A DNA stretch of 64,000 nt from Candidatus Pollutiaquabacter aromativorans (GTDB lineage: Bacteria; Bacteroidota; Bacteroidia; AKYH767-A; 2013-40CM-41-45). The position numbers and the translations under genes were made by a program. Shown here one piece after another: positions 8,557-39,692 of this stretch (the stretch's first letter is position 1; every line of letters begins with the position of its first letter). Under the pieces are notes generated by a model. That model was given only the letters and a program-made list of their open reading frames with translations. It searched no databases and was not told the DNA's origin. The stretch lies in the NCBI GenBank assembly GCA_049177215.1, contig CP185379.1:352957-416956 (forward strand), in the 5' to 3' direction.

Positions 8557-8590
8557 TGAACCCTGCCCGCCGTAGCTTTAGCGAAGGTGC

Positions 8591-13244: not shown

Positions 13245-13302
13245 CACCGGCTGCTCGTCGTAACGGAAACCGATCGATTACGATTTCCACCAAAAATATC
13301 TT

Positions 13303-13789: not shown

Positions 13790-13896
13790 TCAAACTAAGT
13801 CAATGACTGCCGTGACGACGTGATAGAATTCACGCCCGACTTTGCTGTAAGACTGAAGCCCGCGCCACCATTCGGGCGTGCGAGGATCTTTGCTGG

Positions 13897-15456: not shown

Positions 15457-15552
15457 GGTGATGTTTTTTTGTGAAAGTAAGAGATTGCGGGAATAAAAAA
15501 AATGAGCGGGGTGGGTGAGGGGGCGGGAGGATGGTAACTGGTAACTGGAAAC

Positions 15553-15651
15553 TAGATATTAGATATTAGATATTGGTTATTTGTGGTTCGATATTATAAA
15601 CTCGAAACTCGAAACTCGAAACTCGAAACCGGAAACCCGAAACCCGAAACC
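15553..15651. repeat. heptanucleotide tandem repeats: (GATATTA)3, then (CTCGAAA)4-(CCGGAAA)-(CCCGAAA)2
   Basis: Read directly: 'agatattagatattagatatt' at 15553-15573 and 'ctcgaaactcgaaactcgaaactcgaaaccggaaacccgaaacccgaaacc' at 15601-15651. Confidence 0.9.
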
Positions 15652-24300: not shown

Positions 24301-27300
24301 ACGATCCTCTGTACTTCGGCTCCGGTATCGCTGACCGCTTCAGGCGCAAGCAGCTATAACTGGATTGGTACAACGATCACCGGCTCTACCACGGTCAATT
24401 TCGACGTGGCGGCTCAACCGGCTGAAACCAACGCTGCTCCGGGTAACGTGGTTGCTACGGCAACCTTGCCGGCCCTTCCGGCAGGTGCCACGATTACCGG
24501 CGCTACGCTGACGTACAACAACCTGACCGCTCTTGGTACTTCCTGGATGTCAGACATTCGCCTCGGCTTCTCCGGATCGGTTGTAAGCGCTGCAGTGGGT
24601 GGTACGGGATCTACTAATGCCGCAGGAACCTTCAACTATACCAGTTCTTTCGTCCCGACGGTGACCCTGGCTGGTGGTTCAGTCAGCCTGCTCTATTGGG
24701 ATTTCTTTAGCGATAACGCTGGCGCGGAAGCAACCTTCCCGACCGGTACCGCTGTTGCAACCCTGGTGATCAATTATACGCTCCCGGCTAATACTGCCAG
24801 CGTGACCGTAACACCGACCGCTACCACTACTTATACGGTAATTGGTACCGACGGAGTAACCGGTTGCACCAGTTCTGCTACCAGCACGATTACCATCGTT
24901 CCTCCGTTCACCCCGACGGCTTCTGCCAGCCCGGGTGCTGTTTGTTCCGGTGGTGGTTCCGCCCTGTCGGTTTCGGTTTCACCTTCCGGTACCTATACGT
25001 ACTCCTGGACTCCTGCTGCTGGTTTGAACGATCCTTCCAGCGCAAACCCGGTTGCTTCCGGAATCACGTCAACCACGGTATACACGGTGACGGCTACCTA
25101 CACCGGCAGCACCTGTTCTGCTACTGCCACTACTTCCGTGAGCGTCACTCCGCTTTCCTCGGTAACAGTCTCCGCCACTCCGGACGTGATTTGTGCCGGA
25201 CAATCGTCCAGCCTGTCATCCTTCGTCATCGGCGGCGGTGCTCCTTACCAATTTGATTGGTCAGCTGGTTCCGGTACTATTAGTACATCAGCTTCCCTGA
25301 CGGTTACGCCGGCGGGAACCACCAGCTATACCCTTACGGTGACCGATGCCTGCGGCTCTACGCTGACGGCAACACCGGTTACGGTAACGGTGAATCCTTC
25401 ACCGACCACGTTGGCTAACCCGACCTCCGCGCTCTATTGCGGCACGGCGATCTCAGTAACCGCATCCGGTGCCGCAACTTATGCGTGGTCTCCGACGGCA
25501 GGACTGAATAACTCGACTTCCGCTACCGTCCTGGCCAGCCCTACGGCGACCACGACCTACACGGTTACGGGTACCACAGCCGGTTGTTCTTCGACCGCGA
25601 CGGTGGTGATCACAGTCGGTACGCCGATCACGGTGGATGCTACGGCCGACACGACCCAGTCGTGTAGCCCGATGGGCACGGTTCTCCACGCTTGTGTAAA
25701 CCCGTCCTTCAATACCTATACGCTGGATTCTTCCAACGTTGATTACAGCGGTACAGCTGCTTCGATCCAGGTCGGCGGAAACGACGATACGGAAACGATT
25801 CTCGCCATGCCGTTTACCTTCAACTTCTTTGGTACGAACTACAGCCAGGTAATGGTTAGCACGAACGGTTACATCTCGTTCAATACCAGCAATACTTCAT
25901 TAAGTGTTGGATCGATTCCGACGGCCGGTACTCCGGATGCTTTCGTTGCCCTTACCGGTTGCGATCTGCATACACAGACTGCTGGTACGATCGATACCTT
26001 CACGGTCGGTTCGGCTCCGAGCCGGAAGTTCGTGGTTCGTTACAACGACCTGCGCTTCTTCAGCGATGCAACCACCAGTGTTGTTAACGGTAAAATCATC
26101 TTGCACGAAGGCACCGGCATCATCGAGGTACGCGTCGACAACGTGAACTCCGGTACCGACACCCGTACCCGTACGCTGGGTATTGAGAACGCAGGCGGCA
26201 CCGCTGGTTTAGCGGCCCCCGACAAGAACAATACACAATGGAACCAGACGAGTCCGGTCACGTATCGCTTCAGCCCTGCTGCCCGTACTTGTAACAACGC
26301 GGGTATCACCTTCACCTGGTCGCCGGCTACGTCTTTGAGTAGTACAGCTTCCGCTGATCCTACCGTAACCGGTCTGAGCGGAACGACCATCTACACGGTT
26401 ACCGCGCAGAACGCCAGTGGTTGCACCGCCCAGGATACGGTTACATTGATCGTATTCCCGCAGGCTGCCACGCCGACCATCACGCCGAGCGGTCCGCTCA
26501 GCTTCTGTCCGGGTGGCAGCGTAACGCTGACCTCGTCGAACAACACCTTCCCGAACCTGTGGAGCACCAGTGAGACCACCAACTCCATTACGGTGAGCAC
26601 GACCCAGAACATCAGCCTGATTGCTTATGATGCCTTCTGTCCGTCCGCTCCTGCTTCGGTGAACGTGGAACGCTATGACACCATTCAGCCGCTGATCAAC
26701 GTGGATGGTGGTGGAGTAGCACTTTGCGGTTCTTCTACCCGTACCCTGACGGCCGACGGTGGTCCCCAGTTCGTAGCTTGGACCTGGAGTACGACCGAAA
26801 CGACTCAGGCGATCACGATCGGATCCATCGGAACCTATGGTGTATCGGCTCAGGACTTCCACGGTTGTTACACCTACAACTCGGTAACCTTCGTTGCTGG
26901 TCAGACCCCGGTTGCTCCGGTCATTTCGACCACGAGTCCGCTGACGGTTTGTAACAATGATGCGGTAACGATGACCTCCGACCTGGCCGACGGCCTGACC
27001 TGGTCACCGACATTCGACAACACACAGTCGATCACCTACAACCTGTCGCCTCCCGGCACCTACGACTTCTTCGTAACCCGTGATTCGCTGGGTTGTACCT
27101 CCGAGTCGAACCACCTGAACTTCACGGTGAATCCTTCGCCTGATGTGACCGCATTCTCGCCTGCCGATTCGGCTTGTGTGGGTGATGTGATCACCTTAAG
27201 TGGTTCCGGCTTCACGAATGTGACCTCGATCAGCTTCAACGGTACTCCGGCTACCACCTACACCATCGTAGACGACTTCACCATCACGGTGACGGTACCG

Positions 27301-28011
27301 GCTGGCGCTACCTCGGGTGGCATCACGCTGACCGACGGCTCGACGGGTTGTGCAGGCGTAAGCCCGCTCTTCACCATCAAGGTGGTTTGCGGCGCCGAAC
27401 TGAACCTGAAGGTTTGGCTGGAAGGTTACTGTCTGCCTGCTCCGTTCTCCGGAACCATGGCACCGGCCTGGACCAACCAGCAGCGTACCGACCTCGGTAA
27501 CGGCAACATGGGTACCCCGACGGGTAACGAGGCCGACCTGGTGATGGTTGAACTGTACGACAGTGGTAACAACCTGCAGTACAGCGACTCGGTGATGATC
27601 ATGACCGACGGAACCGGCACCATGAGCCTGCCGTCCGGCGCAAATGGCAACAGCTACTACATCCTGATCAAGCACCGCAGCCACCTGCAACTCCGCAGCC
27701 TTGGTCAGGTGACCATGGGTGCCAGCGTTACCTACGACTTCACCACCTCCGATACCCAGGCTGACAACAACGGTAGCAATACCAGCATGGTACAGTTGGC
27801 CAATGGCGATTGGGCGATGTGGGCGGGTGACGTTACCCAGGACGGATTCGTAGGCGGTGACGACGTAGGTCAGGTCGACAATGATAATATTGCCGGTCTC
27901 TACTTTGATTACCTGAGTTCGGATGTGTCCGGTGACGGTTTCATCGGTGGTGACGACGTCGGCGCGGTTGACAATAACAACATCCTCGGAGTTTACTACC
28001 TCTATCCCTGA
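18328..28011 (+). CDS. giant secreted multi-repeat surface protein (3227 aa), paralog A. It has SprB-type Cys repeats, ~80-aa Ig-like 'YxWSP..GLNATTG...TTYTVTGT..GC' repeats, a recurring ~200-aa module, an IPT/TIG-like domain, and a C-terminal module with twin dockerin/EF-hand-like loops
   Basis: One uninterrupted frame. Signal peptide 'LLVLTLLFATMWTMGARAQ'. SprB-like units, e.g. 'ICQGQNGTLSVSVLSGSAPFTYNWEDG'. The module with 'SSNGYAYFG...GVAPNRIFVIDW...GQLQIFESGLIQIHV...LGLRNTAGT' recurs. TIG-like 'ACVGDVITLSGSGFTNVTSISFNGTP'. The protein ends '...WAMWAGDVTQDGFVGGDDVGQVDNDNIAGLYFDYLSSDVSGDGFIGGDDVGAVDNNNILGVYYLYP'. Confidence 0.85.
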   Translation: MGHRFYRNDGKLFQWRLLVLTLLFATMWTMGARAQTTVTIGTGTSTVSTVPIYGFYGYSYSQILYTATDITGGGWAGGAATITNIRFYLNTAPATPANDNSWTVYLGNTSLTSLTAGAANYVPTSAMTQCFSGTVTFPAGGNWMDITLSTPFSYSGGNLLIAVDENAAGYSSASWRYTAATGMSRYLYSDTYNPDPTALPGSYSGTSSSTANRPNLQMVMVAAPACSGTPNGGTATAGTYNFCGSGSTLLSVSGSTSGVTGLSYQWQSGPSATGPWTSISGATNATYTTPTLTTTTYYQRLISCTNSGLSNVSDTTVVNINTVPTVSVTPTSYSSCTSPVATSLSASGASTYSWSPAAGLNATTGASVNASVTSSTVYTVTGTSTEGCTGTATASVNLNYSPAAPTTTNYSICLNGTVPSGQGLSVPAPPSSGTVTAVFTGSPFTSPGPVTSVSTVSVPGLPAGATITSATLQLFTVSAVGASYMSEIRVALTGAYTLAATQVSTTGSSGTISPDPVVNLTGWPAAGGSVTLVLSESYDDGGTDATIAGAQIVINYSVPTTTVSWWDAASGGTQVGSGPVFDPVAALLVNPSVSGNTTFYAQYDAPSCSSARVAAVFSVGAPLTISAITPNPTAICQGQNGTLSVSVLSGSAPFTYNWEDGVTGTISTAASPTISPTTTLTYTVTVTDNCSQAASSTVTVPVNPIPSVTASGSAAASCGGSTVVLTASGTATSYSWAPSTGLNATTGASVNATPTTSTTYTVTGTLGGCTATYTVSVGAGTAVTVNSVTADPSSVCVGGSTQLNATGQYASGLGPVNTYTYAGSTSGATLYDLSALPPILTTSNDDTPSGILTLPFAVTFDGVSYTECSVSPDGWVLFGNTAASNQFTNLVTSTTNIPKLYPYWDDLATGTTGYVKGAVAGTAPNRVLIVQWFVTIPRNTTGAANSTFEARIYETTGVVEFHYGAMGPSSTMSASVGMTGNATNFHSVTLSSLTSSTVTSNDGNTDVPTAGTMITYTPVQQYASISSFSWSPASGLNNTAIANPTAGPLSSASTYTVTATSPAGCTGTASITINVGDPLVLGGISGTSTICQGASTSLTATITSGSGPFTYSWSDGSNPVGTTNPISLSPSATTIFTVTVTDGCLGTATATYTVNVDPAPSISVSPTSSTYCSSAVALTASGGTSYAWSPSTGLNATTGVSVNASPLITTTYTVTGTGSNGCTATATAVVNKGTPITNVVASASPQSFCAPGGNSTLNVTATVNSTPPAAPTTYCGPTVQSGVACVSLVTIGTLNNSGSACVTPYYNTYAPTGANTTTLIPGTTYPITVTCAATAIVSVWIDFNRDGVYDASEWVQPYTTGTTGTVNITVPLGASLGQTGMRVRSRSSGNPNGSTDACSDFGSGSCENYTVTIGSFTPTTLSYSWSPAAGLNDPSLQSPTASSIAGTTTYTVTISETNGCTATGTTTIDVGSALTLNPITGTATICQGQSTSLTASVATGNAPYTYDWSDAGGTVGTGNPISLSPSASSVFTVTVTDACGQTATATYSVTVNSAPSVSASPSSSSYCGTAVALSASGAVTYSWAPGAGLNATTGSSVNASPVASTTYTVTGTGSNGCTATATASVTVGTIFTSVTASASPSNICTGQTANLTVNATLPPCANFYNVNSTTYGLQPTAGFTALAGADDADLATGISLPFSFNFYGTAQTSINISSNGYAYFGAANGGSIFADGVTNGISVFSADMFPTAGQVSYGTVGVAPNRIFVIDWNGMPEYAGGGTHTGQLQIFESGLIQIHVASATSSTRNKTLGLRNTAGTDNTYPAGFANLPWTVNTPTAWTFSPCISATITAYSWSPGAELDDASLQSPVYSPTANGVTTFTVTVTNSGGCTATATTSVTVGSTINVSASAAPATICSGISTTLTATPTGGCGAYTYDWSDGVTSIGTTASLSVSPSASSVYTVVVTDNQSNSSSATVPVTVVASPTVSISPASTILCTSAPVSLTASGASSYNWIGTTITGSTTVNFDVAAQPAETNAAPGNVVATATLPALPAGATITGATLTYNNLTALGTSWMSDIRLGFSGSVVSAAVGGTGSTNAAGTFNYTSSFVPTVTLAGGSVSLLYWDFFSDNAGAEATFPTGTAVATLVINYTLPANTASVTVTPTATTTYTVIGTDGVTGCTSSATSTITIVPPFTPTASASPGAVCSGGGSALSVSVSPSGTYTYSWTPAAGLNDPSSANPVASGITSTTVYTVTATYTGSTCSATATTSVSVTPLSSVTVSATPDVICAGQSSSLSSFVIGGGAPYQFDWSAGSGTISTSASLTVTPAGTTSYTLTVTDACGSTLTATPVTVTVNPSPTTLANPTSALYCGTAISVTASGAATYAWSPTAGLNNSTSATVLASPTATTTYTVTGTTAGCSSTATVVITVGTPITVDATADTTQSCSPMGTVLHACVNPSFNTYTLDSSNVDYSGTAASIQVGGNDDTETILAMPFTFNFFGTNYSQVMVSTNGYISFNTSNTSLSVGSIPTAGTPDAFVALTGCDLHTQTAGTIDTFTVGSAPSRKFVVRYNDLRFFSDATTSVVNGKIILHEGTGIIEVRVDNVNSGTDTRTRTLGIENAGGTAGLAAPDKNNTQWNQTSPVTYRFSPAARTCNNAGITFTWSPATSLSSTASADPTVTGLSGTTIYTVTAQNASGCTAQDTVTLIVFPQAATPTITPSGPLSFCPGGSVTLTSSNNTFPNLWSTSETTNSITVSTTQNISLIAYDAFCPSAPASVNVERYDTIQPLINVDGGGVALCGSSTRTLTADGGPQFVAWTWSTTETTQAITIGSIGTYGVSAQDFHGCYTYNSVTFVAGQTPVAPVISTTSPLTVCNNDAVTMTSDLADGLTWSPTFDNTQSITYNLSPPGTYDFFVTRDSLGCTSESNHLNFTVNPSPDVTAFSPADSACVGDVITLSGSGFTNVTSISFNGTPATTYTIVDDFTITVTVPAGATSGGITLTDGSTGCAGVSPLFTIKVVCGAELNLKVWLEGYCLPAPFSGTMAPAWTNQQRTDLGNGNMGTPTGNEADLVMVELYDSGNNLQYSDSVMIMTDGTGTMSLPSGANGNSYYILIKHRSHLQLRSLGQVTMGASVTYDFTTSDTQADNNGSNTSMVQLANGDWAMWAGDVTQDGFVGGDDVGQVDNDNIAGLYFDYLSSDVSGDGFIGGDDVGAVDNNNILGVYYLYP

Positions 28012-28091: not shown

Positions 28092-31000
28092 ATGAAAACA
28101 AGCACTACACGATGGGTAAAGGGGTGGCTGGTAGCCGCACTTTTACTGCTGGGCTGGTCGGGCAAGGTTTCGGCGGAACGCATCACGACGATGACGCTGG
28201 AAAATTGTACACAGACTGCGCCAAACACATTTTACATGGATGCTTACATCCAAAACACAGGTACAATCGACCTGTTATTCCGAAGCACGAATATTCGCTT
28301 CCTGGTTAACAAGTCGGTTATTCCTGCCGGGGCAACGTTAACAGTATCGTTGCAGACTGCCGGACTGATTGATCCAGCACTGGGGTCGCTGCCAATTTCA
28401 TTGACCCCAACTGGTGCTCAAGCTTCTGGTACAGGAACATTTCTTGTAGCCTTAAGTTCAACTTCCACGTTCTTCACTGGAGCTAGTGCGCCTAATATGG
28501 CCCAAAATGCAAAGTGGCGTTTTGGTCGAGTGTTTTTTACCTGCTCTCAGAATTATGCGGTGAATGCAATCCCCACCATTACATGGGGGTCAAATGCCCA
28601 GAACGTAACGTACTATCTGACAAATTCACCTACATCAGGTAACGCAACTTTGGGAATTAGTGCTGTTGCACCAAATGATCGCAATGTTCTAGGTTCAATA
28701 TGTTCCCTCACGCTGAACGCTCCTTCGTGTACCCTTGCCGCCGCGATTCCTGTTGAGAACGTAACCAACGCCAACTGCCAGGGCTCTGCTACTGGTTCGG
28801 CTACGGTGAACGTTTCGGGTGGCACTGCCCCCTTCACCTATTCCTGGGCTCCCTCCGGTGGCACGCTTGCTACTGCAACGGGACTGACTGCCGGTACCTA
28901 TACGGTAACCGTTACCTCTGATGGTGGAACTTGTACCGCTTCCGCTACCGCTACGGTTGGCGATGGACCGGCTCCTTCGTACAACACTTCTACGGTTTCG
29001 GCTTGCGTCAGTTATACCTGGCCGGTAAACAGCCAGAACTATACCGGTTCCGGTTCTTACACGGCTCAAGTTGGTCCTTGCGCGTATGAAGTATTGGATC
29101 TGACGGTTACTCCGCAGCCTCCTCCTCCTACCGGACTGGCTTGCTACGAGACGGCTTCGTTCAACACCACGACCTGTTCCTGGGACGTAACGGGCACCCA
29201 GCCGGCCATGCCGACGCTTGCTTGCTACGAAACAGCATCGTTCAACAACACGACTTGTGTTTGGGACGTAACGGGCACCCAGCCGGCTATGCCGACGCTT
29301 GCTTGTTATGAGACCGCTTCGTTCAACACCACGACCTGTTCCTGGGACGTAACGGGCACCCAGCCTGCAGCTCCGACAGGTCTTGCTTGCTACGAGACGG
29401 CTTCGTTCAATAACACGACCTGTTCCTGGGACGTAACGGGCACGCAGCCGGCACAGCCGACGCTTGCTTGTTATGAGACCGCTTCGTTCAACACCACGAC
29501 CTGTTCTTGGGACGTAACGGGCACCCAGCCTGCAGCTCCGACCGGTCTTGCTTGCTACGAGACGGCTTCGTTCAACAACACGACCTGTTCTTGGGACGTA
29601 ACGGGCACCCAGCCGGCTATGCCGACCCTGGCTTGCTACGAGACGGCTTCGTTCAACACCACGACCTGTTCCTGGGACGTAACGGGCACCCAGCCGGCTA
29701 TGCCGACGCTTGCTTGCTACGAGACGGCTTCGTTCAACAACACGACCTGTTCCTGGGACGTAACGGGCACCCAGCCGGCACAGCCGACGCTTGCTTGCTA
29801 CGAGACGGCTTCGTTCAACGGTACCACCTGTCAGTGGGACGTAACGGGCACGCAGCCGGCACAGCCGACGCTTGCTTGCTATGAGACGGCTTCGTTCAAC
29901 ACCACGACCTGTTCCTGGGACGTAACGGGCACGCAGCCGGCACAACCGACGCTTGCTTGCTATGAGACGGCTTCGTTCAACACCACGACCTGTTCCTGGG
30001 ATGTAACGGGCACGCAGCCGGCACATGCCGACGCTTGCTTGTTATGAGACGGCTTCGTTCAACACCACGACCTGTTCCTGGGACGTAACGGGCACGCAGC
30101 CGGCACAGCCGACGCTTGCTTGTTATGAGACGGCTTCGTTCAACACCACGACCTGTTCCTGGGACGTAACGGGCACGCAGCCGGCACAGCCGACGCTTGC
30201 TTGTTATGAGACCGCTACCTTCAACGGTACCACCTGTCAGTGGGACGTAACGGGCACCCAGCCGGCAGCTCCGACGGGTCTGGCTTGCTATGAGACGGCT
30301 TCGTTCAACGGTACCACCTGTCAGTGGGACGTAACAGGCACGCAGCCGGCACAACCGACGCTTGCTTGTTATGAGACCGCTACCTTCAACGGTACCACCT
30401 GTCAGTGGGACGTAACGGGCACGCAGCCGGCACAGCCGACGCTTGCTTGCTACGAGACCGCTACCTTCAACAACACGACCTGTTCCTGGGACGTAACGGG
30501 CACGCAGCCGGCACAGCCGACGCTTGCTTGCTACGAGACGGCTTCGTTCAACACCACGACCTGTTCCTGGGACGTAACGGGCACGCAGCCGGCACAGCCG
30601 ACGCTTGCTTGCTACGAGACGGCTTCGTTCAACACCACGACCTGTTCCTGGGACGTAACGGGCACCCAGCCGGCCATGCCGACGCTTGCTTGCTACGAGA
30701 CGGCTTCGTTCAACACCACGACCTGTTCCTGGGACGTAACGGGCACGCAGCCGGCACAGCCGACGCTTGCTTGCTATGAGACGGCTTCGTTCAACACCAC
30801 GACCTGTTCCTGGGACGTAACGGGCACGCAGCCGGCACAGCCGACGCTTGCTTGTTATGAGACCGCTACCGTTCAACGGTACGACCTGTCAGTGGGACGT
30901 AACGGGCACCCAGCCTGCAGCTCCGACCGGTCTTGCTTGCTACGAGACGGCTTCGTTCAACAACACGACCTGTTCCTGGGACGTAACGGGCACCCAGCCG

Positions 31001-33637
31001 GCTATGCCGACGCTTGCTTGTTATGAGACCGCTACCTTCAACGGTAGCACCTGTCAGTGGGACGTAACGGGCACGCAGCCGGCACAGCCGACACTTGCTT
31101 GCTACGAGACGGCTTCCTTCAATAACACGACCTGTTCCTGGGACGTAACGGGCACTCAGCCGGCTATGCCGACCCTTGCTTGCTACGAGACCGCTACCTT
31201 CAATGGTACCACCTGTCAGTGGGACGTAACAGGCACGCAGCCGGCACAGCCGACGCTTGCTTGCTATGAGACCGCTACCTTCAACAACACGACCTGTTCC
31301 TGGGACGTAACGGGCACGCAGCCGGCACAGCCGACGCTTGCTTGCTACGAAACGGCTTCGTTCAACACCACGACCTGTTCCTGGGACGTAACGGGCACGC
31401 AGCCGGCACAGCCGACGCTTGCTTGCTATGAGACGGCTTCGTTCAACAACACGACCTGTTCCTGGGACGTAACGGGCACGCAGCCTGCAGCACCGACCGG
31501 TCTTGCTTGCTACGAGACGGCTTCGTTCAACTCTACTACCTGTCAGTGGGACGTAACGGGCACCCAGCCGGCTATGCCGACCCTGGCTTGCTACGAGACA
31601 GCTACCTTCAACAACACGACCTGTTCCTGGGACGTAACCGGAACGCCGCTTTCGGCTTCCTGTGTTGCATCTGATGCGGTTTGCTTCGGTGGACTCGGTT
31701 CCATCACGGTTAGCGCTTCGGGTGGTACGGCTCCGTATTCCGGAACCGGTACCTTTAACCTGGTTGCAGGTACCTATAACTACACGGTTACGGACAACGG
31801 TGGTTGTACGTCTTCCTGCTCTGCAACGATCGCCGAGCCGGCCAAAGTTGAGGCTTCCTCGATCACGTCCACTCCGTCCAACTGCGGTGGCAGCACGGGA
31901 ACCGCTACGGTAGTCGCTACCGGCGGTGACGGTAACTACAGCTACCTCTGGGCTCCGGCCGGCGGCACTTCCGCTTCGGCTACGGGTCTTGCTTCTGGCA
32001 GCTACACCGTGACCATCACCGATGGTAACGGTTGCACCGGCTCTGCTACGGTAGTAGTAGGCGGCGCTGGTTCTGGTCCTGATCCTGCAGGCGCAATCGC
32101 TGGTCCTGCCGGCGCTTGCCGCAGCACCACGGTAACGTACTCGATCGCTCCGGTTTCCGGTGCTTCGTCCTACATCTGGAGTCTCCCGGTTGGCGCTTCC
32201 GGTTCTTCGACCGGCACCAGCATCACGGTGACCTTCAGCTCTACCTATGGTGGTGGCTTCATCTGCGTAACCCCGACCAACGCTTGCGGCAACGGTACTC
32301 CTGCTTGCATCAACGTTCCGGTTCTCACGGTTAAGCCGACCACTCCTGGTCTGATCTCCGGCCCGAACCCTGTTTGCGGCCCGACCACCGCTACCTACTC
32401 GGTTGCTCCGGTTTCCGGCGCTACGAACTATGTATGGTCGGTCACCGGTACCGGTGTGTCGATCGTAAGCGGTAACGGAACCAACTCCGTACAGGTTAGC
32501 ATCCCGGCCGGCTTCGGTCAGGGTTCGATCTCTGTCTATGCTCAGAACTGCAAAGGCAACAGCCCGACCCGCAACCAGACGCTGACCGGCGTACCGACGC
32601 ACTCTTCGGCGCTCTTCGGTCCGATCTACAACTGTCCGAACACTTCGGCTTCGTTCTCGATCTCCGTTGTTCCGGGTACTGCAACGTACACCTGGTCCAT
32701 CACCGGCGACGCTTCCATCGGATCCAGCAGCGCTAACAGCTGCACGGTGAACTTCGGTCCGGCCTGGACCTCGGGTGTCCTGACGGTAACCACCAGCAGC
32801 ACTTGCGGTTCCTTCTCGCGTTCCTACACGCTCCGTTCCGTACCGACCCAGCCGGGTGGTATCACGGGTCAGGCCTCTGCCCTGTGTAACGCTACGGGTG
32901 TTTCGTACTCCATCGCAGCTGTAGCCGGTGCAACCGGTTACAACTGGACGGTTCCGGCCGGTGCTACCATCACCAGCGGTCAGGGTACTACCTCGATCAT
33001 GGTCAACTTCGGCACCTCTGCTGGTAACGTTTGCGTAACCGCAAGCAACTCCTGCGGATCGAGCGTAGCTCGTTGCCTGGCCGTTATCACGGTACCGGCT
33101 GCTCCTGCAGCCATCTCTGGTCCTGCCAGCGTATGTAAGTCGCAGACGGGTACGTATTCCATCAGCCCGGTTAGCGGTGCTACCTCTTATGTATGGTCGG
33201 TCACCGGTGGTGCTTCGATCGTACCGAGCGGCACCTCGGCTACTGTGAACTACAACTCCGCACTCAGCACTTCCGCTACCGTTCGCGTCAATGCAGTGAA
33301 CGCATGTGGTCTGAGCCAGCCGCGCACCCTGGCTGTTGCTGTGAACCTCGGCTGCCGCACCAGCGGCGAAGAGATGACCGCAGCCAGCGCGCTGACCGCT
33401 TACCCGAACCCGACCAACGGTCTGGTTACGATCAACTTCAACGCAGTTGCAGCTGAGCGTTACACGGTGAAAGTGGTTGACCTGCTCGGTAATGTGGTTG
33501 TCAGCGACCAGCTCAACGCTGTCGAAGGCAACAACATGAAGGAGCTGAACCTGACCAACGTCGCCAAAGGCATGTACCTCATGTCGCTGGAGACCGAGGG
33601 TGGTAATGTTCAAACCCTGCGCCTCATCGTCGAGTAA
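28092..33637 (+). CDS. large T9SS cargo protein (~1848 aa if the frames are joined). It has an N-terminal domain related to that of 45598..46881, SprB repeats, about 31 tandem 27/28-aa Cys2 repeats, Ig-like repeats, and a C-terminal type-A sorting domain. It is read as three ORFs because of two apparent +1 frameshifts (~30030, ~30870) inside the repeat array
   Basis: ORFs 28092..30047, 30025..31026 and 30848..33637 are in successive frames, and the same repeat peptide continues across each break. Signal peptide 'WLVAALLLLGWSGKVSA'. SprB repeat 'NCQGSATGSATVNVSGGTAPFTYSWAPSGG'. The C-terminal 'LTAYPNPTNGLVTINFNA...KGMYLMSLETEGGNVQTLRLIVE' is a Por_Secre_tail-type CTD. Confidence 0.8.
29126..31640 (+). 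repeat. about 31 near-identical head-to-tail copies of an 81-bp unit (84-bp variant with an extra Gly codon) encoding 'LACYETASFN(T/N/G/S)TTC(S/Q/V)WDVTGTQPA(Q/M/A)PT(G)'
   Basis: Period measured directly: 'tgctacgag' at 29131 and again at 29212. I counted the copies by hand from the three ORF translations (11 + 10 + 1 + 9). Sequence variation is confined to about 5 codon positions and recombines combinatorially among copies. Confidence 0.95.
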
Positions 33638-33839: not shown

Positions 33840-36800
33840 ATGTCACGCCTACCCTCCGGAAAGTCTGGTTCGTATTGCTTTGTGCGAACCCTGATTATTT
33901 TGTCTGTATATAGTGTTTTCTTTTTCGCGATCCGGGTGAATGCCCAGACCGCAAGCCAGTATACCTTTTCGACAGCAACCGGTGCTTCACTCACCACCAT
34001 GACGGGTTCCACCCTGATCATGGGTAGTAACCTGGACGATAGCGCCAGTACGACCATCAACATAGGATTCTCTTTTACGTTCGCCGGTACAGCCTATACG
34101 CAATTCTCCGTGAACTCGAACGGGCTAATGCGACTGGGTAGCACTGCTGTTACGAATGCCTGGCAGAATGGAATCACCACAGGGCCATTCCCCGCTTTAA
34201 TGCCCTTGTGGGATGACGGACATACCGGATCCAACGGTGGTGTTCGTTACCTGTTGACCGGTACAGCACCAAACCGGCAGCTCACGGTGGAGTGGACCAT
34301 TCGCAGTTATTCCGGAGAAACCGGCAATTACACCAAGACCTTCCAGGCCTGGCTGTTCGAGACTTCCAATGTGGTACAATACGTTTACGGCACCGGCACG
34401 GCTGCAACCAGCGCCAGTATCGGTATTGCAAGCAGCTCAACGGCCTATCAAAGTGTCAGCACGTCTACCAATACGGCTTCTACCACCACCCCGAACAACA
34501 GTGTAACCACCTGGGCAGGCAGCGGCAGAACGTATGTGTTCACGCCCCCCGTCATTCAGAATTGCAGTGGGACGCCTGCTGCAGGAACTGTCAGCGGGAC
34601 GAATGTGCTTTGTTCCGGTTTGACAACGATCCTGACTGCTAGCGGAGCTACGCCCACTTCCTTCGGTGGCATTTCTTATCAGTGGCAGGAGTCCGATGAT
34701 AACGGTGTAGGTGATCCCTGGGCAAGTGTTGTAGGAGGAAGCGGAGGCACGACGCTCGTCTATACCACACCGGCTTTGACGACCAGTCGATATTATCGAC
34801 TGCTTGTCAGTTGCTCGTTCAGTGGTTTGTCGGCAAGTACAACGGAGTACCTCGTAACCGTCAATCCGCGTCCTACCGTGACGGTATCGCCAACCACCTC
34901 GACGCTTTGCGCGGGGAATAGTGTTGTTCTGACGGCTTCCGGAGCAGATACCTATGCCTGGTCGCCTTCCACGGGTTTGAACGCGACGACCGGGGCTTCG
35001 GTGACCGCGACTCCAACTGTCAGTACTACCTACACGGTCACCGGTACCACGACCTCAAGCGGTTGTACCGCCACGGCAACATCGGCTATCAATACAACAG
35101 TCGGAATCAATGCAAGCGCTGGCGCCAATCCGGTGAATATATGCCCCGGTGGCGCCACCACGCTGAATGCTGTGGCCAACACCAGTACCTCCGGCTACAC
35201 ACTGGCTTCCATTCCGTACCAGTTATACCCGACAACCGGATTTACCACCATCACCTCCTGGACCGGGACCGCTGACGATGGATCAGCGGCAGTGACCTTA
35301 CCGTTTAATTGGTTCTTCTACGGAAACTCCTATACCAGTGCATTCATTGGTACCAACGGATATCTGATCTTCGGAACAACGTCAACAGCCTATCAGGCGG
35401 TTGCCATCCCTGCCACGGCGGCACCGAACAATTACATAGCACTCTGTTGGACCGATTTGAATCCGGGATCAGGAGGAACCATATCGTATGGAACGGTTGG
35501 TACGGCGCCGAACAGGGTGTTCGTGGTTGACTATAGCGGCGTACTTTTTTACAATGCCAGTGGAAGTATCGCGACCGGTCAGATCTGCCTGTTCGAAGAC
35601 GGCCATATTGAAATTCATGCTACCACCCTTGACCGGGGAACTTCTACCGCAGCCGCTGTCATGGGCATCGAGAATTCCGGAGGAACCGCCGGAACGGCCG
35701 TGACCGGCAGAAATGGCGGAACCTGGTCAGTGACGGCGCCGGAAGCCTGGTCATTTACGCCAGCCTATCCGGCATTCACGTATAGCTGGAGCCCCGCGAC
35801 CGGACTGAGTAACCCGAATATTGCCAACCCGGGTGTTACGGGTGTTGTAACGACTTCTTCTTATACAGTGACCGTCAGTGGAGGTGGAGGTTGTGCCGCT
35901 ACGGCCACGGCAACGATCATTACCGGTCAACCCTTTTCCGTTAGCGCGGCATCTTCCGCGAACAATTTCTGTTTTGGTGGTACGACGAACCTGACCGCCA
36001 ATGCGACCGGAGGTGGTGTCCCATATTCGTACTCCTGGTCAACGGGTGGCACAACCATCGGAACCACCGGAGCTTTAACGGTTGCACCGCCAGCCGGCAC
36101 AACAACCTACACAGTATCAGCATCCGATAATTGCGGCAATACCTCCAGCGCTACGGTGTCGGTTACGGTCATTGCTCCGCCTAACGTTGGTGCGACGGCA
36201 TCTTCCTCGCTCGTCTGCGGCAGCGGATCTGTGACCTTGAACGCAACGGGTGCCAATGGTTATTCCTGGGTGCCGGCGGATGAACTGAGTGTTCCCTTTG
36301 GCGCGACAGTAACCGCTTCGCCTTCCGTATCTACTTTGTATACGGTAACCGGAACGGATGCAGCCGGTTGTACTGCTACCGCTACGGTTCAATTGACCGT
36401 AGTTCCGGGTGTGACCCTGCAGGCTACCGCGACTCCTTCCAACCTATGTACTGGAACGAGTTCACAACTCAATGCGAACGCGACCCAGGAGGCGCCCTAT
36501 TCACTCGCTCAGGTTGCGTATCTGCCCTTATCGACCGCAGGATTTCAAACCATTACCTCCTGGACCTCGGCGGGTACCGGAAACGACGATTATTTCGGCC
36601 CGGTCGCGCTTCCGTTCAGCTTTAATTTCTTCGGGCAGAACAAGTCTCAGTTGTATATCGGATCGAACGGATTCATCACCTTCGGTACTCCCTCCACCGA
36701 TCCTTTTTCCCAATTGTTCCCGGATCCTGCACACCCGAATGATGTGGTGGCCTTGTGTTGGGGTGACCTCGACCCGGGCGCCGGTGGTACGGTGAAATAT

Positions 36801-39692
36801 GGTGTCGTAGGTACCGCTCCGAACCGGATCTTCGTTGTTGATCTGCAGTCGGTCCCGTTCTTTGGAATCGCTTCCGGCAGTAATGTGACCGGTCAGATTC
36901 ATCTATATGAAACCTCAGGCAGGATCGAACTTCATCTTGCGAGCGTACAGCATAACGGTTCAGGTGCCTTGAACGGCATGGGTATCGAAAATGCAAGCGG
37001 TACGCGGGCACATTATCCCTTGGGTCGTAATGGGGGTTTGATCACCTGGAACGTGATCAGTCCGGAAGCATGGCGATTCGACCGTTTGCCTTTCAGCTTG
37101 AATTATTCCTGGACGCCTGCATCCGGCCTGAATAGCAGCTCAATCGCCAATCCGGTTGCCGGTCCGCTCGCAGGTTCTGCGACCTATACGGTAACAGCCA
37201 CCGATAATTTCGGATGTACGGCGACCGCCAGTCTCAGCCTGTCGGTTGGTCAACCCTTGAACGTTCAGGCCGGCGCAACAGCAACCATACTCTGTCTGGG
37301 TAGCAATACCACGCTTCAGGCGATCATCAGCGGGGGAGGGGAGCCATATGGTATTACGTGGAAACAAGGCGTGACCACCATTGGCAATACCGCGGACCTG
37401 GTCGTTACACCTCCGTTGGGCACGACAATTTATACGGTTAGCGTTTCGGATGCATGTGGTGGAACCGGTAGTTCAACGGTTCAGGTGACCGTTCTCAACT
37501 CGCCCTCGGTATCCGTCACCAGCAGTGGAAGTCTGATTTGTGGATCCGGATCCGTTACGATGACCGCTTCCGGGGCCACCAGCTATGTGTGGAGTCCGTC
37601 CATTGGACTGAGTGCGACGACCGGCACAACCGTTATAGCTTCCCCGAATGGAACCACCACCTATACGGTAACCGGATCGATTTCCGGTTGTTCGGCAACT
37701 GCCACCCGTACGATCACGGTGGCGCCGGCTGTACAGCAGTTGGATCTTTCGGCCGATCAGATCAGCGGTTGTAGTCCGTTGACCACCAGCTTGCATGCTC
37801 AGGCCTGTTTCAGCGCGCTCACGAATTATAAGGTGGATTCCTCTTCGGCGGATTATGCTCCAACCAGTTCCGGCTTCGTTACGTTCAATGGTCGTGATGA
37901 CGGTTCCGTCGTGATCGCGCTTCCGTTTCCGTTCCGGTTCTTTGGTAATACCTATTCTTCGGCATACATCAGCACCAACGGATATCTCGGCTTTGGCAGT
38001 AGCTCCTCTGCGTACACCACCGCCACCATGCCTGCTTCGGGAGTGCCGAACAATTTCATTGCCCTCGTATGGAATGACATGATTCATTCGACCGTGAATT
38101 CTGGCGTGGATACCTTTACCGTTGGGTCGCCTGGTGCAAGGGCATTTGTTGTCCGCTTCAATGCCGGGGCCGTTTCTTTTTTTGACGGGACTACGTCATA
38201 CGGTTCGTTCGGCGGCAAGATCATCCTTCATGAAAGTTCCAATGCCATCGAGCTTCGGATCGACGCGATGAATATGGGAGCCTTGGCTACCCGGAATAAA
38301 GTCCTGGGTATCGAGAATTCGACGGGACTGCTCGCCTTTTCCGTTCCCGGAAAGAACAATACCAACTGGGTGCAATCCACTCCGATCACTTATTCCTTCA
38401 CACCCAGTTTGCAGTGTTCCGGTACGTCCGCGTTTATGTATGCCTGGAGTCCTTCAACGGGATTGAATGATCCCGCATCCGCCAACCCTGTATTGACTAA
38501 TCTGCTGTCGGGAACAACCTATACGGTTACGGCTACATCAAGCGACGGTTGCAGTCGGACTTCGACACTCAGCATCCAGGTCTACAATAACCCTCCTGTC
38601 CCCACGGTTACAACCACGGGTTCCACGGATCTCTGCTGGGATGGGGTCAATCCGTTGTCATCGGTCTTATTGACCGCAGATACAACCGGTAGTGGGCCGG
38701 GTGCATCGTTCATGTGGAATGATGTTTATGGAACGTCTTCCACCAGTTTGAATGTCACACCGGATGTGGTCATTCCTTCTCCCTATGGTTTCCAGGCAAT
38801 AGTTACTGACTTCAGAGGGTGTTCGTCAACCTCAACACCGGTCAGCGTCTCTACGGCCTTGTATCCGACGATCGCCTCGCTGAATCCGAGTTCGGGTTGT
38901 CCGGGAGATTCCATCGATGTGGCGGGCACTAATTTTTCGACAGTCGTCTCGGTGGATTTCTTCGGTGTGCCAGCAGGCTTCAGGATCGTGAATGCAAACC
39001 TCCTTCGGATCGAAGTTCCACCCGGCGCGCTGAGTGGTTCCATTAACCTTGCTACCAGCACCGGTTGTTCCGAATCGTCTTCCATGTCGTTTACTGTGAA
39101 TACCTGCGGCGGTTCGCTCCTGGACATGACCTTGCTGATCCAGGGTTATTATGACGGCGCGGGCGGTATGACCGGTACCTTGTACAATTCGGGAATTTCG
39201 TTCGATCCTACCGATTGTGAATTCCTGCATGTCTGCTTGATGGATGCCGGAACGCTGACGGAGACCGACTGTTTCGATGAAGTCCTGAAAACGAACGGCA
39301 GCCTGCAGATTTCGATTCCTGGCGGGTATGTGGGCTCTTCCTTCTACCTCAAGATCACGGGCCGAAACATTCTGGAAACCTGGACGACCGCCCCGGTTCA
39401 GATCGTCAGTCCGTTCACTGTACTTGATCTGACAACTGCAGCCAACACCGTCTTCGGTGACAACCAGGTTCAGGTTTCAACTGCACCGGCCCGTTGGGCA
39501 ATCTGGAGTGGCGATTTGAATCAGGACGACTTGATTGAGGCGACTGATTATAGTACCATGGAAAACGATGTGCAACAATTCCTATTCGGCTATGTGCCAT
39601 CTGACATTACCGGTGATGGAATCGTTGAGGCCTCGGATTATGCGCTAGTAGAGAACAACAGTTTGTTGTTCCTATTCTCAATAACCCCCTGA
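33840..39692 (+). CDS. giant secreted multi-repeat surface protein (1950 aa), paralog B, with the same module grammar and the same C-terminal module (a more diverged variant)
   Basis: Signal peptide 'LIILSVYSVFFFAIRVNAQ'. The N-terminal recurring module is 'FSFTFAGTAYTQFSVNSNGLMRLG...GTAPNRQLTVEWTI...QAWLFETSNVVQYVY'. SprB-like 'FCFGGTTNLTANATGGGVPYSYSWSTGG'. It ends 'WAIWSGDLNQDDLIEATDYSTMENDVQQFLFGYVPSDITGDGIVEASDYALVENNSLLFLFSITP'. Confidence 0.85.
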   Translation: MSRLPSGKSGSYCFVRTLIILSVYSVFFFAIRVNAQTASQYTFSTATGASLTTMTGSTLIMGSNLDDSASTTINIGFSFTFAGTAYTQFSVNSNGLMRLGSTAVTNAWQNGITTGPFPALMPLWDDGHTGSNGGVRYLLTGTAPNRQLTVEWTIRSYSGETGNYTKTFQAWLFETSNVVQYVYGTGTAATSASIGIASSSTAYQSVSTSTNTASTTTPNNSVTTWAGSGRTYVFTPPVIQNCSGTPAAGTVSGTNVLCSGLTTILTASGATPTSFGGISYQWQESDDNGVGDPWASVVGGSGGTTLVYTTPALTTSRYYRLLVSCSFSGLSASTTEYLVTVNPRPTVTVSPTTSTLCAGNSVVLTASGADTYAWSPSTGLNATTGASVTATPTVSTTYTVTGTTTSSGCTATATSAINTTVGINASAGANPVNICPGGATTLNAVANTSTSGYTLASIPYQLYPTTGFTTITSWTGTADDGSAAVTLPFNWFFYGNSYTSAFIGTNGYLIFGTTSTAYQAVAIPATAAPNNYIALCWTDLNPGSGGTISYGTVGTAPNRVFVVDYSGVLFYNASGSIATGQICLFEDGHIEIHATTLDRGTSTAAAVMGIENSGGTAGTAVTGRNGGTWSVTAPEAWSFTPAYPAFTYSWSPATGLSNPNIANPGVTGVVTTSSYTVTVSGGGGCAATATATIITGQPFSVSAASSANNFCFGGTTNLTANATGGGVPYSYSWSTGGTTIGTTGALTVAPPAGTTTYTVSASDNCGNTSSATVSVTVIAPPNVGATASSSLVCGSGSVTLNATGANGYSWVPADELSVPFGATVTASPSVSTLYTVTGTDAAGCTATATVQLTVVPGVTLQATATPSNLCTGTSSQLNANATQEAPYSLAQVAYLPLSTAGFQTITSWTSAGTGNDDYFGPVALPFSFNFFGQNKSQLYIGSNGFITFGTPSTDPFSQLFPDPAHPNDVVALCWGDLDPGAGGTVKYGVVGTAPNRIFVVDLQSVPFFGIASGSNVTGQIHLYETSGRIELHLASVQHNGSGALNGMGIENASGTRAHYPLGRNGGLITWNVISPEAWRFDRLPFSLNYSWTPASGLNSSSIANPVAGPLAGSATYTVTATDNFGCTATASLSLSVGQPLNVQAGATATILCLGSNTTLQAIISGGGEPYGITWKQGVTTIGNTADLVVTPPLGTTIYTVSVSDACGGTGSSTVQVTVLNSPSVSVTSSGSLICGSGSVTMTASGATSYVWSPSIGLSATTGTTVIASPNGTTTYTVTGSISGCSATATRTITVAPAVQQLDLSADQISGCSPLTTSLHAQACFSALTNYKVDSSSADYAPTSSGFVTFNGRDDGSVVIALPFPFRFFGNTYSSAYISTNGYLGFGSSSSAYTTATMPASGVPNNFIALVWNDMIHSTVNSGVDTFTVGSPGARAFVVRFNAGAVSFFDGTTSYGSFGGKIILHESSNAIELRIDAMNMGALATRNKVLGIENSTGLLAFSVPGKNNTNWVQSTPITYSFTPSLQCSGTSAFMYAWSPSTGLNDPASANPVLTNLLSGTTYTVTATSSDGCSRTSTLSIQVYNNPPVPTVTTTGSTDLCWDGVNPLSSVLLTADTTGSGPGASFMWNDVYGTSSTSLNVTPDVVIPSPYGFQAIVTDFRGCSSTSTPVSVSTALYPTIASLNPSSGCPGDSIDVAGTNFSTVVSVDFFGVPAGFRIVNANLLRIEVPPGALSGSINLATSTGCSESSSMSFTVNTCGGSLLDMTLLIQGYYDGAGGMTGTLYNSGISFDPTDCEFLHVCLMDAGTLTETDCFDEVLKTNGSLQISIPGGYVGSSFYLKITGRNILETWTTAPVQIVSPFTVLDLTTAANTVFGDNQVQVSTAPARWAIWSGDLNQDDLIEATDYSTMENDVQQFLFGYVPSDITGDGIVEASDYALVENNSLLFLFSITP

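Follow-up and report, generated by a model that had tools for sequence, protein, structure and literature searches.

A 31-unit tandem array in a T9SS cargo protein of Candidatus Pollutiaquabacter aromativorans: a probable surface stalk built from a widespread, uncatalogued Bacteroidota repeat

Introduction

Several bacterial surface adhesins are known to carry tandem-repeat stalks; examples are the Rib-domain arrays of surface proteins in Gram-positive bacteria, the E-G5 rods of SasG and Aap, and the arrays of Ig-like extenders in RTX adhesins such as MpIBP. The 64,000-nucleotide stretch of Candidatus Pollutiaquabacter aromativorans DNA analyzed here (hereafter, the window) contains a gene with many short units repeated in tandem, and its reading frame is interrupted twice in the assembled sequence. 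Does this gene encode an intact surface protein, what is its repeat unit, and what might the array do?

Gene structure and the two frame breaks

As assembled, the gene is represented by three ORFs (28092-30047, 30025-31026 and 30848-33637); deletion of one base at each break yields a single ORF of 1847 aa, in which 31 in-frame units are placed between the head and the anchoring end (Table 1). The signal peptide was recognized by inspection (basic n-region, hydrophobic core, VSA/E). An earlier note on this DNA had taken the product for T9SS cargo, and this was confirmed by two sorting-domain profiles, both of which score above their cut-offs (27 bits for Por_Secre_tail, PF18962, and 23 bits for TIGR04183).

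Table 1. Features of the repeat-containing gene and of its dockerin-tailed neighbours (window coordinates)
Feature	Position	Strand	Remarks
Dockerin-like double motif (GDVTQDGFVGGDDVG...DVSGDGFIGGDDVG), end of upstream 3227-aa gene (18328-28011)	27811..28008	+	
Whole gene	28092..33637	+	1847-aa T9SS type A cargo protein after removal of two +1 insertions
Sec-type signal peptide (MKTSTTRWVKGWLVAALLLLGWSGKVSA/E)	28092..28175	+	By inspection of the sequence
N-terminal head domain	28176..28730	+	Cohesin-like predicted β-sandwich; ordered part roughly aa 29-178
SprB repeat	28755..28856	+	PF13573, 43 bits, aa 222-255
46-aa two-Cys module, single copy	28992..29135	+	C-x-SYTW...NxxYTxSGxY...C...LxLTV-Pro-rich
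Array, 31 units of 81/84 nt	29136..31642	+	27/28-aa unit LA-CYETA[ST]FNxTTCxWDVTGTQPAxPT(G)
First +1 break, GGCACATGCCG	30020..30030	+	Hybrid of GCA-CAG (Ala-Gln) and GCC-ATG (Ala-Met) variants
Second +1 break, GCTACCGTTCAAC	30865..30877	+	ACC (Thr variant), then G of TCG (Ser variant)
Two SprB repeats 3' of the array	31655..31960	+	Pfam; best at aa 94-125 of the C-terminal query
Five PKD_6 (PKD-like) domains	32075..33350 (approximate)	+	PF19408, 279.9 bits, 5 stretches
T9SS type A C-terminal sorting domain	33401..33634	+	PF18962, 55.4 bits; TIGR04183, 49 bits
Dockerin type I module, C-terminus of downstream 1950-aa gene (33840-39692)	39495..39689	+	Pfam
Dockerin-like tail of 1864-aa gene	45215-45412		Same as that of the 3227-aa gene

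At the first break, repair can yield either of two known unit variants, a property shared by only 7% of random insertions, and for the second break there is one known-like repair. Thus, of the earlier proposal that both breaks sit on hybrid variant junctions, the first half stands, the first break being a true hybrid, while the second break is compatible with a hybrid. Neither GGCACATGCCG nor GCTACCGTTCAAC contains a homopolymer or short tandem tract, and a simple-sequence contingency (phase-variable) locus was therefore rejected. Similar one-base errors are found at variant junctions and homopolymers in the arrays of the MAG chromosome CP058707.1. The arrays of Lacinutrix, an isolate genome, are broken as well, which fits sequencing error and is not proof of it; the arrays of Algibacter and of the orthologue L028 have no breaks.

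If the breaks were real, the gene would be a recently inactivated pseudogene, with a 651-aa N-terminal product that lacks the sorting domain and with the rest untranslated. Both insertions are indeed present in the assembled sequence, and other assemblies also show broken arrays; however, the original frame is free of stop codons for 3.6 kb after the first break with every domain intact, the breaks lie away from homopolymers and simple repeats, the first of them combines diagnostic bases of two unit variants, the remaining window contains long intact ORFs (3227, 1950, 1864 and 1187 aa), and both L028 and a complete isolate genome have unbroken arrays. We consider inactivation quite unlikely; both +1 breaks are most likely consensus errors that arose where reads of different unit variants were mixed.

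Units and variation within the array

Tandem Repeats Finder (TRF) reported a single array at 29139-31646 (period 81, 30.8 copies, 87% matches, score 3506), and the anchor motif TGYTAYGARAC delimited 31 units with starts from 29142 to 31589, in agreement with the earlier count of about 31 in-frame repeats of 81/84 bp. The spacing is 81 nt in 24 cases and 84 nt in four (units 3, 5, 14 and 29); units 11 and 22 have spacings of 82 nt and 85 nt, the latter being 84+1, and unit 31 has lost the linker half and kept the core. Five units have an extra Gly codon, which occurs only together with the GCA-GCT (Ala-Ala) variant. It had been described as GGT or GGA; the codon is GGT in every case. The variable protein sites listed earlier were all recovered, together with one more, a Thr-to-Ser change in unit 24.

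Among 30 units, there are 13 distinct protein sequences and 27 distinct DNA sequences. Pairwise nucleotide identity between units averages 87% (range 72-100%), and 32 of the 84 nucleotide columns vary, the majority of changes being synonymous (pS 0.29, pN 0.075, pN/pS 0.26). It should be noted that the array had been thought to consist of near-identical DNA and to have expanded recently. The mean identity and the pS value do not agree with this, and since the same variant types are also found in a different genome, recent expansion is not supported. Combinatorial shuffling of variants applies in part: blocks of variants are partially shuffled, and full combinatorial exchange was not found, with variant positions 9 and 13 being tightly linked and the extra Gly being fully linked to Ala-23.

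Exact repeats between units reach 111 nt. Such long repeats would allow unequal recombination or slippage, so that copy number, and hence reach, could shift over evolutionary time with the frame remaining intact, while the peptide would be held constant by purifying selection. The same repeats, together with two consensus-type errors within the array and with the many family arrays that stop at contig ends in short-read assemblies, favor another interpretation, namely that collapse or expansion of the repeat during assembly produced the copy number, and perhaps some of the variant order, and that the true array differs from 31 units. This is doubtful, with an appreciable chance of being correct: 27 of the 30 units are distinct in DNA and thus offer many anchors for an assembler or long reads, and arrays of similar or larger size occur in complete genomes.

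A widespread repeat family

The earlier note did not recognize the unit as a described domain, and the unit is indeed absent from curated domain libraries: searches against Pfam-A 2025 and NCBIfam 20.0 gave no credible full-length match above a curated cutoff, and NCBIfam gave nothing at all. The best Pfam match, LIFR_N (24.3 bits versus a cutoff of 24.1), was rejected because the alignment is confined to positions 4-36 of the 79-position profile, with the score summed over repeats; DUF285 was below its cutoff, and SprB (PF13573) was not found in any of six units scanned at E<=1, while the flanks do match SprB. Neither a sequence match nor a fold match was found in the PDB.

The unit is not a feature of this gene alone. 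We confirmed 535 unit stretches in GTDB representative genomes, and 441 representative proteins contain the unit at E<=1e-3, in as many as 33 stretches per protein. The hosts include Flavobacterium, Algibacter, Lacinutrix, Olleya, Brumimicrobium, Chitinophagaceae and Sphingobacteriales, and cold or aquatic habitats are the source of many of these genomes. Arrays range from 3 to 54 copies; for example, a complete Algibacter genome has 48 in-frame units between a Peptidase_M14/fn3/GEVED region and MopE plus a C-terminal sorting domain (CTD). The unit-bearing proteins are always secreted, with a sorting domain of type A or type B at the C-terminus and with varied, unrelated heads (Kelch, lectins, LamG, DUF7507). 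The family has the consensus C[YW][EQ]TA[TS]FNxx[TS]CxW[DE][VI][TS]GxQPxxP, in which the aromatic residues and Thr are near-invariant. DNA identity is 0.77-0.89 within arrays versus 0.63-0.78 between arrays; between arrays of different genera, protein identity is 0.65-0.90. Judged by its sequence, the 27/28-aa unit is an uncatalogued yet widespread Bacteroidota repeat family.

The unit had also been suggested to derive from the flanking sequence GPCAYEVLDLTV, just upstream, which is not supported. We found no DNA similarity between this flank and the unit beyond that of shuffled sequences; the flank belongs to a separate family of 46-aa modules, for which hhalign against the unit gave a probability of 0.9% and Pfam no credible match. 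The 46-aa module resembles the 27-aa unit in having two Cys, a Pro-rich tail and the same position in an orthologous gene; however, the spacing between Cys is x23-24, compared to x10 in the unit. It often directly adjoins 27-aa arrays and can form long arrays itself: present as a single copy 5' of the array here, it is amplified about 27 times in L080.

Predicted fold, cysteines and the sequon

An AlphaFold (AF2) model of four units has one β-hairpin per unit (pLDDT 93.5, pTM 0.59), with the Pro-rich linkers between units predicted confidently as ordered. In 1038 distinct units, the strongest covariation between non-adjacent positions is that of positions 5 and 16, which the predicted register pairs across the two strands; the covariation thus supports this register. 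Each unit may be pictured as a β-hairpin mini-domain that contains two cysteines and leads into an ordered Pro-rich linker. The intra-unit disulfide suggested earlier is not supported, as the two Cys are at opposite ends in this covariation-supported register; we infer that the units are disulfide-bonded, either within a unit or from unit to unit.

All 31 window units have N-x-T or N-x-S, which is what would be expected if the array were a glycosylated, mucin-like region with this site modified in every unit. In the family, however, N-x-S/T is found in only 53% of 1062 units and is not the defining feature that it had been taken for, the conserved Ser/Thr being at N+3 (89%). Furthermore, the extended bacterial sequon D/E-x-N-x-S/T is present in 2 of the 1062 units, and 7% of units contain the O-glycosylation motif of Bacteroidota, D-[ST]-[AILVMT], which is absent from the 1847-aa protein. 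To our knowledge, N-linked glycosylation of the N-x-S/T kind is not established in Bacteroidota. A glycosylated region is very improbable.

The array as a stalk

The length-variable stalk put forward in the earlier note is the best reading of the array. Among orthologues that share the C-terminal architecture, the unit count is 14 (L016), 24 (L028, an intact 1636-aa ORF) or 31 (the window), a comparison that is between species and includes some short-read assemblies, which may collapse arrays; the C-termini of the L028 and L016 proteins are collinear with that of the window protein (52-59% identity). In the syntenic orthologue L080, the 27-aa units are absent and approximately 27 copies of the 46-aa module occupy the position of the array, and the homologue P0213 consists of a head and a CTD, with no stalk. 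The layout of head, array and anchor recurs in Algibacter and in 83 CTD-bearing representatives.

These observations are consistent with one intact, T9SS-secreted, surface-anchored protein, in which the C-terminal sorting domain would attach the chain to the outer membrane and 31 serial units would set the N-terminal head apart from the SprB/PKD-like base and the sorting domain. The array is probably an extended stalk that holds the cohesin-like head away from the cell; we infer a spacer function and rigidity.

Alternatively, the array could be a multivalent binding surface (e.g., for polysaccharide, mineral or ice), in which the hairpins present conserved Tyr/Phe/Trp and a Thr-rich turn. Conservation of the units, with up to 90% protein identity between arrays, exceeds the apparent need of a passive spacer and leaves room for a binding role. 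The protein identity of 65-90% between arrays of different genera, at a DNA identity of 63-78%, is more than a linker needs; the near-invariant aromatic residues and Thr, the cold or aquatic habitats of many hosts and the predicted order of the linker point in the same direction. On the other hand, the whole array is replaced by an array of unrelated-looking 46-aa modules in the syntenic orthologue, one homologue lacks the stalk entirely, the accompanying heads already have binding or catalytic domains, and a search for structural matches of the unit yielded no binding repeat. A binding surface is, in our estimation, unlikely.

The proposed stalk shares several properties with the Rib, SasG/Aap and MpIBP stalks: many in-frame, highly similar units separate a functional head from the end that anchors the protein to the cell, the copy number differs among relatives, homogenisation has acted on the units of an array, and the array is presumed to project the head from the surface. 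The units themselves differ, being 27-28 aa long, with a predicted β-hairpin, a putative single disulfide and a Pro-rich linker, in contrast to an Ig-like domain of 80-130 aa; the anchor, unlike in these systems, is a T9SS type A sorting domain at the outer membrane of a Gram-negative cell. No sequence or fold relation to the Rib, SasG/Aap or MpIBP families was detected in Pfam, NCBIfam or the PDB. SprB (PF13573) and PKD_6 (PF19408), which occur in the same protein, are likewise small Cys-containing β modules arranged in series in Bacteroidota surface proteins, but the unit matches neither profile and differs from them in length, C-x10-C spacing and consensus.

The cohesin-like head and its dockerin-tailed neighbours

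The predicted fold of the head is a nine-stranded jelly-roll β-sandwich superimposable on known cohesins. At the sequence level, the Pfam Cohesin profile did not match any of 9 head homologues at E<=10, and the only match among PDB sequences was a CBM3b (E 0.14). The 1950-aa product of the downstream gene matches Dockerin_1 (PF00404) at 27.1 bits versus a cutoff of 22.9, in 2 stretches, and the top PDB sequence matches of its tail are all type I dockerins (E of about 0.01). The tail of the upstream 3227-aa protein has no Pfam match of its own and is homologous to that of the 1950-aa protein (BLASTP, 30% identity, E 1e-21). All three giant neighbours (3227, 1950 and 1864 aa) have signal peptides and lack a recognisable T9SS sorting domain; they are adhesin-like, with Ig_7, NIDO, GEVED and CUB domains. 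The pairing of a cohesin-like head gene with dockerin-tailed neighbours recurs in three genomes.

The dockerin module of the 1950-aa protein is a possible partner of the cohesin-like head; for the binding of a dockerin by the head, the conserved adjacency of dockerin-tailed genes is the one piece of indirect evidence. More broadly, and tentatively, this gene may belong with its neighbours to a cohesin-dockerin system of surface assembly, in which the T9SS-anchored head at the tip of the stalk captures the dockerins of the three giants. If this is true, the stalk would be roughly tens of nanometres long, with 31 disulfide-containing hairpin units and a single cohesin-like head at its tip, and the repeat copy number, or the choice of amplified module, would tune the distance from the cell at which the giants are displayed.

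For the protein and its neighbours as a whole, the nearest known counterparts are the cohesin-dockerin anchoring scaffoldins of cellulosomes, from which the window protein differs in having one cohesin-like module, mounted on a long stalk of repeats. Unlike cellulosome cohesins, the head family has no match to the Pfam Cohesin profile; the window protein is anchored by T9SS, whereas cellulosome scaffoldins are anchored by SLH domains or sortase; and the dockerin-bearing candidate partners are giant adhesin-like proteins rather than the glycoside hydrolases of cellulosomes.

The Array and the Protein That Carries It

The array, built of tandem repeats, is most likely the stalk of a secreted surface protein; its 27/28-aa two-cysteine unit is uncatalogued, and the array is no one-off case. 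It is of value chiefly for three things: a new repeat family, the amplification of alternative modules at one position of orthologous genes, and a cohesin-dockerin lead.

Tandem Repeats Finder reported one array (see the table), and 31 units were counted in it as assembled, using the conserved TGYTAYGARAC as the anchor; thus, the array described in the earlier note is real and lies where that note had put it. The spacing of the units is 81 nt in 24 cases, 84 nt in four cases, and 82 and 85 nt once each; the 82-nt spacing is unit 11, and the 85-nt spacing is unit 22, i.e., an 84-nt unit with one base more. The assembled region comprises three overlapping ORFs. When one base is taken out of GGCACATGCCG (break 1) and one out of GCTACCGTTCAAC (break 2), a single 1847-aa ORF with no internal stop results. 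The N-terminus of this protein reads, by inspection, as a Sec signal peptide, and the earlier assignment as a T9SS cargo protein is borne out by a type A sorting domain.

Features of the window gene and its neighbours, with the evidence for each
Feature	Coordinates	Context	Evidence
Overlapping ORFs of the window gene (+)	28092-30047; 30025-31026; 30848-33637	as assembled	
46-aa module, single copy	28992-29135	just upstream of the array	
Tandem array	29139-31646	between head and sorting domain	Tandem Repeats Finder: period 81, 30.8 copies, 87% matches, score 3506
Break 1, in GGCACATGCCG	30020-30030	unit 11	
Break 2, in GCTACCGTTCAAC	30865-30877	unit 22	
SprB repeats		one before the array, two after	Pfam
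PKD_6 domains, five		window protein	Pfam
T9SS type A sorting domain		window protein	PF18962, 55.4 bits; TIGR04183, 49 bits
Minus-strand stop-free ORFs	28695-30026 (443 aa); 29977-30876 (299 aa); 30866-33613 (915 aa)	opposite the window gene	
Dockerin type I	39495-39689	end of 33840-39692 (1950 aa), next gene downstream	Pfam, 27.1 versus 22.9 bits
Dockerin-like double motif	27811-28008	end of 18328-28011 (3227 aa), upstream gene	homologous tail, GDxxxDGxxGGDDVG twice
Dockerin-like double motif	45215-45412	end of 39821-45415 (1864 aa)	homologous tail, GDxxxDGxxGGDDVG twice

We consider the two breaks to be most likely consensus errors, because of the repairs available at variant junctions, the lack of a homopolymer or simple repeat at either break, the long intact ORFs in the remainder of the window, and the behaviour of comparable arrays. 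The earlier note placed both breaks on hybrid variant junctions. This holds well for break 1, where two repairs are possible, each yielding a different existing variant (Ala-Gln or Ala-Met), something that only 7% of the full set of random insertions allow. For break 2, there is a single repair of this kind; here, the Thr codon is immediately followed by the G from the alternative Ser codon. There is no evidence of further broken genes among the overlapping ORFs at 54-61 kb, and GreA is intact. Four arrays in CP058707.1, the chromosome of a metagenome-assembled genome (MAG), are broken by one-base errors at variant junctions and at a GGG run, and many database "proteins" with this unit are shifted-frame fragments. 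The arrays of Algibacter and of L028, a locus with an orthologue of the window gene, have no frame breaks.

The minus-strand ORFs opposite the gene were rejected as genes; they are Arg-rich readings, apparently a by-product of the GC-rich repeat.

Variation among the Units

The copies had been described as near-identical; in fact, mean pairwise DNA identity is 87% (range 72-100%), 32 of the 84 columns in the unit DNA alignment are variable, and 27 of 30 units are distinct in DNA, with only three identical pairs. Within the array, pS is 0.29 versus a pN of 0.075; therefore, silent sites are considerably diverged and the peptide has been held constant. The variable amino-acid sites agree with those listed before, with one addition, a Thr-to-Ser change in unit 24. 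The extra Gly codon, given previously as GGT or GGA, is GGT in every case and is found in five units, all of which have the Ala-Ala variant.

Numbering positions from the first Cys, we distinguish three variant blocks: (i) position 6; (ii) positions 9 and 13; (iii) position 23, with or without the Gly. The combinatorial shuffling proposed earlier is seen between blocks, which occur in all combinations, whereas variants are linked inside them: positions 9 and 13 are tightly linked (Gly with Gln; Thr or Asn with Ser), and the extra Gly is completely linked to Ala-23. In a 43-unit array of CP058707.1, a different and AT-richer genome, these alternative residues recur and the units are again of either 81 or 84 nt; therefore, the variant types are old or recurrent rather than recent noise. 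Exact repeats in the window array reach 111 nt and would permit unequal recombination. DNA identity is 0.77-0.89 within arrays versus 0.63-0.78 between arrays, which fits array-specific homogenisation or expansion.

An Uncatalogued Repeat Family

The failure to recognise the unit as a described domain was justified, since neither Pfam nor NCBIfam has a curated family for it: a Pfam search with six units at E ≤ 1 returned only a partial, summed LIFR_N match at the threshold and other sub-threshold noise, and NCBIfam gave no match. The unit profile found nothing credible among PDB sequences (best E 1.6), and no description of the unit was found in the literature searched for the motif and for T9SS tandem-repeat stalks. 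Source annotations name the proteins that contain it only for their other domains.

The unit is by no means peculiar to this gene. With each species represented by one genome, a scan confirmed 535 unit stretches; among the hosts are Flavobacterium, Algibacter, Lacinutrix, Olleya, Brumimicrobium, Chitinophagaceae and Sphingobacteriales, and the arrays at those loci have 5 to 54 units with a period of 81, 84 or 87. When 1.84 billion representative proteins were searched exhaustively with the profile, 441 of them matched at E ≤ 1e-3, with up to 33 stretches per protein and a median of 7 units among the best 149 of the 441. The family consensus from 1038 distinct units is C[YW][EQD]TA[TS]FNxx[TS]CxW[DEV][VI][TS]G[TSE]QPxxP. 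The unit is thus a well-defined repeat domain that Pfam and NCBIfam lack: its consensus is clear, it occurs in 441 or more representative proteins, and its arrays reach 54 copies. With a family model built from it, many fragments now called "hypothetical" in Bacteroidota genomes and MAGs could be better annotated.

A protein search with four units (the fourth taken from elsewhere in the array, hence non-contiguous) yielded nothing but short fragments, often frame-shifted, which pointed to problems of assembly and told little about architecture; most database matches to the unit are shifted-frame fragments 59-191 aa long. The arrays disrupt assemblies and gene calls, and knowledge of the family helps to flag such artefacts. 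A metagenome scan with the N-terminal 348 aa of the window protein found no close relative and matched only SprB repeats of unrelated proteins.

Multiple arrays may occur in one genome. CP058707.1 (MAG SSA2) has at least six separate array loci of 6 to 43 copies (L001/L031, L017, L018, L035, L046 and L047), and four of its loci contain one to four single-base frame breaks each; the array at L035 is almost uniform, 34 of 39 units being the same in protein. In the isolate Lacinutrix jangbogonensis (L075), arrays of approximately 33 and 54 units (7041-9794 and 11133-15585) lie 1.3 kb apart on one contig, with two frame changes each, and no more than 30 nt separate the second from the end of its locus.

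The N-x-T sequon, singled out earlier as a feature, does not characterise the family: N-x-S/T is present in only 53% of 1062 family units, and it is at N+3 that a hydroxyl residue is conserved (89%). Of the 1062 units, 2 have the extended bacterial sequon and 7% the Bacteroidota O-glycosylation motif. The latter motif, D-[ST]-[AILVMT], occurs zero times in the repaired 1847-aa protein, although it is very rich in Ser and Thr.

Predicted Fold and Cysteine Pairing

An AlphaFold2 model of four consecutive window units (16-row alignment; pLDDT 93.5, pTM 0.59) has one β-hairpin per unit, with strands TA[ST]FN and xWDVT and the loop xTTC, and Pro-rich linkers are predicted with confidence. The strongest family covariation among variable, non-adjacent positions is that of 5 with 16. 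These two form a cross-strand pair in the predicted register, alongside Phe7 opposite Trp14, which lends this register independent support.

In the same register, Cys1 falls where the hairpin is open and Cys12 falls in its loop; therefore, the intra-unit disulfide suggested earlier is geometrically doubtful. As an alternative, Cys12 may be bonded to Cys1 of the next unit, the linker then folding back alongside the hairpin. The ends of the arrays give mixed signals on the pairing: a Cys is found 9-22 residues upstream of most arrays and another 14-22 residues downstream of them, the upstream one being absent from 7 of 128 arrays and the downstream one from 16 of 133.

Probable Stalk Function and Alternative Modules

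Several independent comparisons point to a stalk or spacer function of the array. First, the heads that accompany unit arrays are unrelated (Kelch, legume-lectin, LamG, DUF7507 and Gly-rich), and the C-termini of array proteins are type A-like in 60 cases and type B-like in 23 (regex counts). Algibacter sp. R77976, whose genome is complete, has 48 in-frame units with Peptidase_M14/fn3/GEVED on one side and a MopE motif with the T9SS C-terminal sorting domain on the other. Second, the view of the array as a length-variable stalk is upheld by relatives that have the same C-terminal architecture (52-59% identity over ~657 aa): the 31 units of the window gene compare with 24 in L028, where the 1636-aa ORF is intact, and 14 in L016, and two further relative loci, cut by contig ends, have at least 16 and at least 7.

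Third, the stalk can be made of something else. L080 (JADKHU010000011.1) is a syntenic orthologue, 50% identical at the N-terminus and 64% at the C-terminus over 658 aa, with flanking genes homologous to those of the window. It contains no 27-aa units; at the position of the window array, it has ~27 tandem copies (10912-14607) of a 138-nt, 46-aa two-Cys module (ACDTYTWSVNGQTYTASGTYTSVTGCHTEILVLTITPSTSNTTT). The L080 gene is likewise split, into a 196-aa and a 2006-aa ORF. P0213, a 333-aa protein from ENA, consists of this head followed immediately by a T9SS sorting domain much like that of the window protein; it lacks the stalk and the SprB and PKD modules. The display of the head can thus be stalkless, on 27-aa units, or on 46-aa modules. 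That orthologues gained a long stalk via different small modules at one position makes this a clean natural experiment, in which alternative module amplification would show selection on stalk length, not on unit identity. It should be noted that peptide conservation of the units between genera is up to 0.90, beyond the need of a linker; therefore, a binding role of the units, instead of a plain stalk, is kept as a rival to the stalk or spacer function.

The 46-aa module, present in one copy in the window, belongs to a widespread family for which Pfam has no model; 35 or more of 149 representative proteins contain it, and it often directly adjoins 27-aa arrays, before or after them. Its end is the flank 'GPCAYEVLDLTV', from which the unit had been thought to derive. 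This origin is not supported: hhalign puts the probability of a relationship at 0.9%, and the flank DNA aligns to the unit consensus no better than shuffles do. Homology of the unit to the 46-aa module as such was rejected on the same two comparisons.

Cohesin-Like Head and Dockerin-Tailed Neighbours

The head (aa 29-215) has no match in Pfam or NCBIfam. Its AlphaFold2 model, for which nine homologues were used, is of moderate confidence (pLDDT 67, pTM 0.68) and shows a β-sandwich of nine strands with a cohesin-like fold. The next gene downstream ends in a type I dockerin, and the best PDB sequence matches for its tail are type I dockerins. The tails of the 3227- and 1864-aa genes are homologous to it (BLASTP E 1e-21), a shared β-domain of ~130 aa precedes the tail in all three giants, and a recognisable T9SS sorting domain is missing from each of them. 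In L080 and L028, too, the stalk protein with the cohesin-like head has a dockerin-tailed giant immediately upstream, and the dockerin-like tail ends that upstream gene (9515-9907 and 27-5870, respectively). The likeness of fold in a moderate model, together with this gene adjacency, suggests that the stalk may present a docking module for the neighbouring giants. If the head truly docks them, the system would be the counterpart of the anchoring scaffoldins of cellulosomes, anchored through T9SS and serving giant adhesin-like proteins.

Zero Pfam families were found at E ≤ 1e-4 in three representative proteins (P0095, P0119 and P0186), which carry 27-aa arrays but, with no T9SS sorting domain, have a dockerin-like double motif at the C-terminus (regex).
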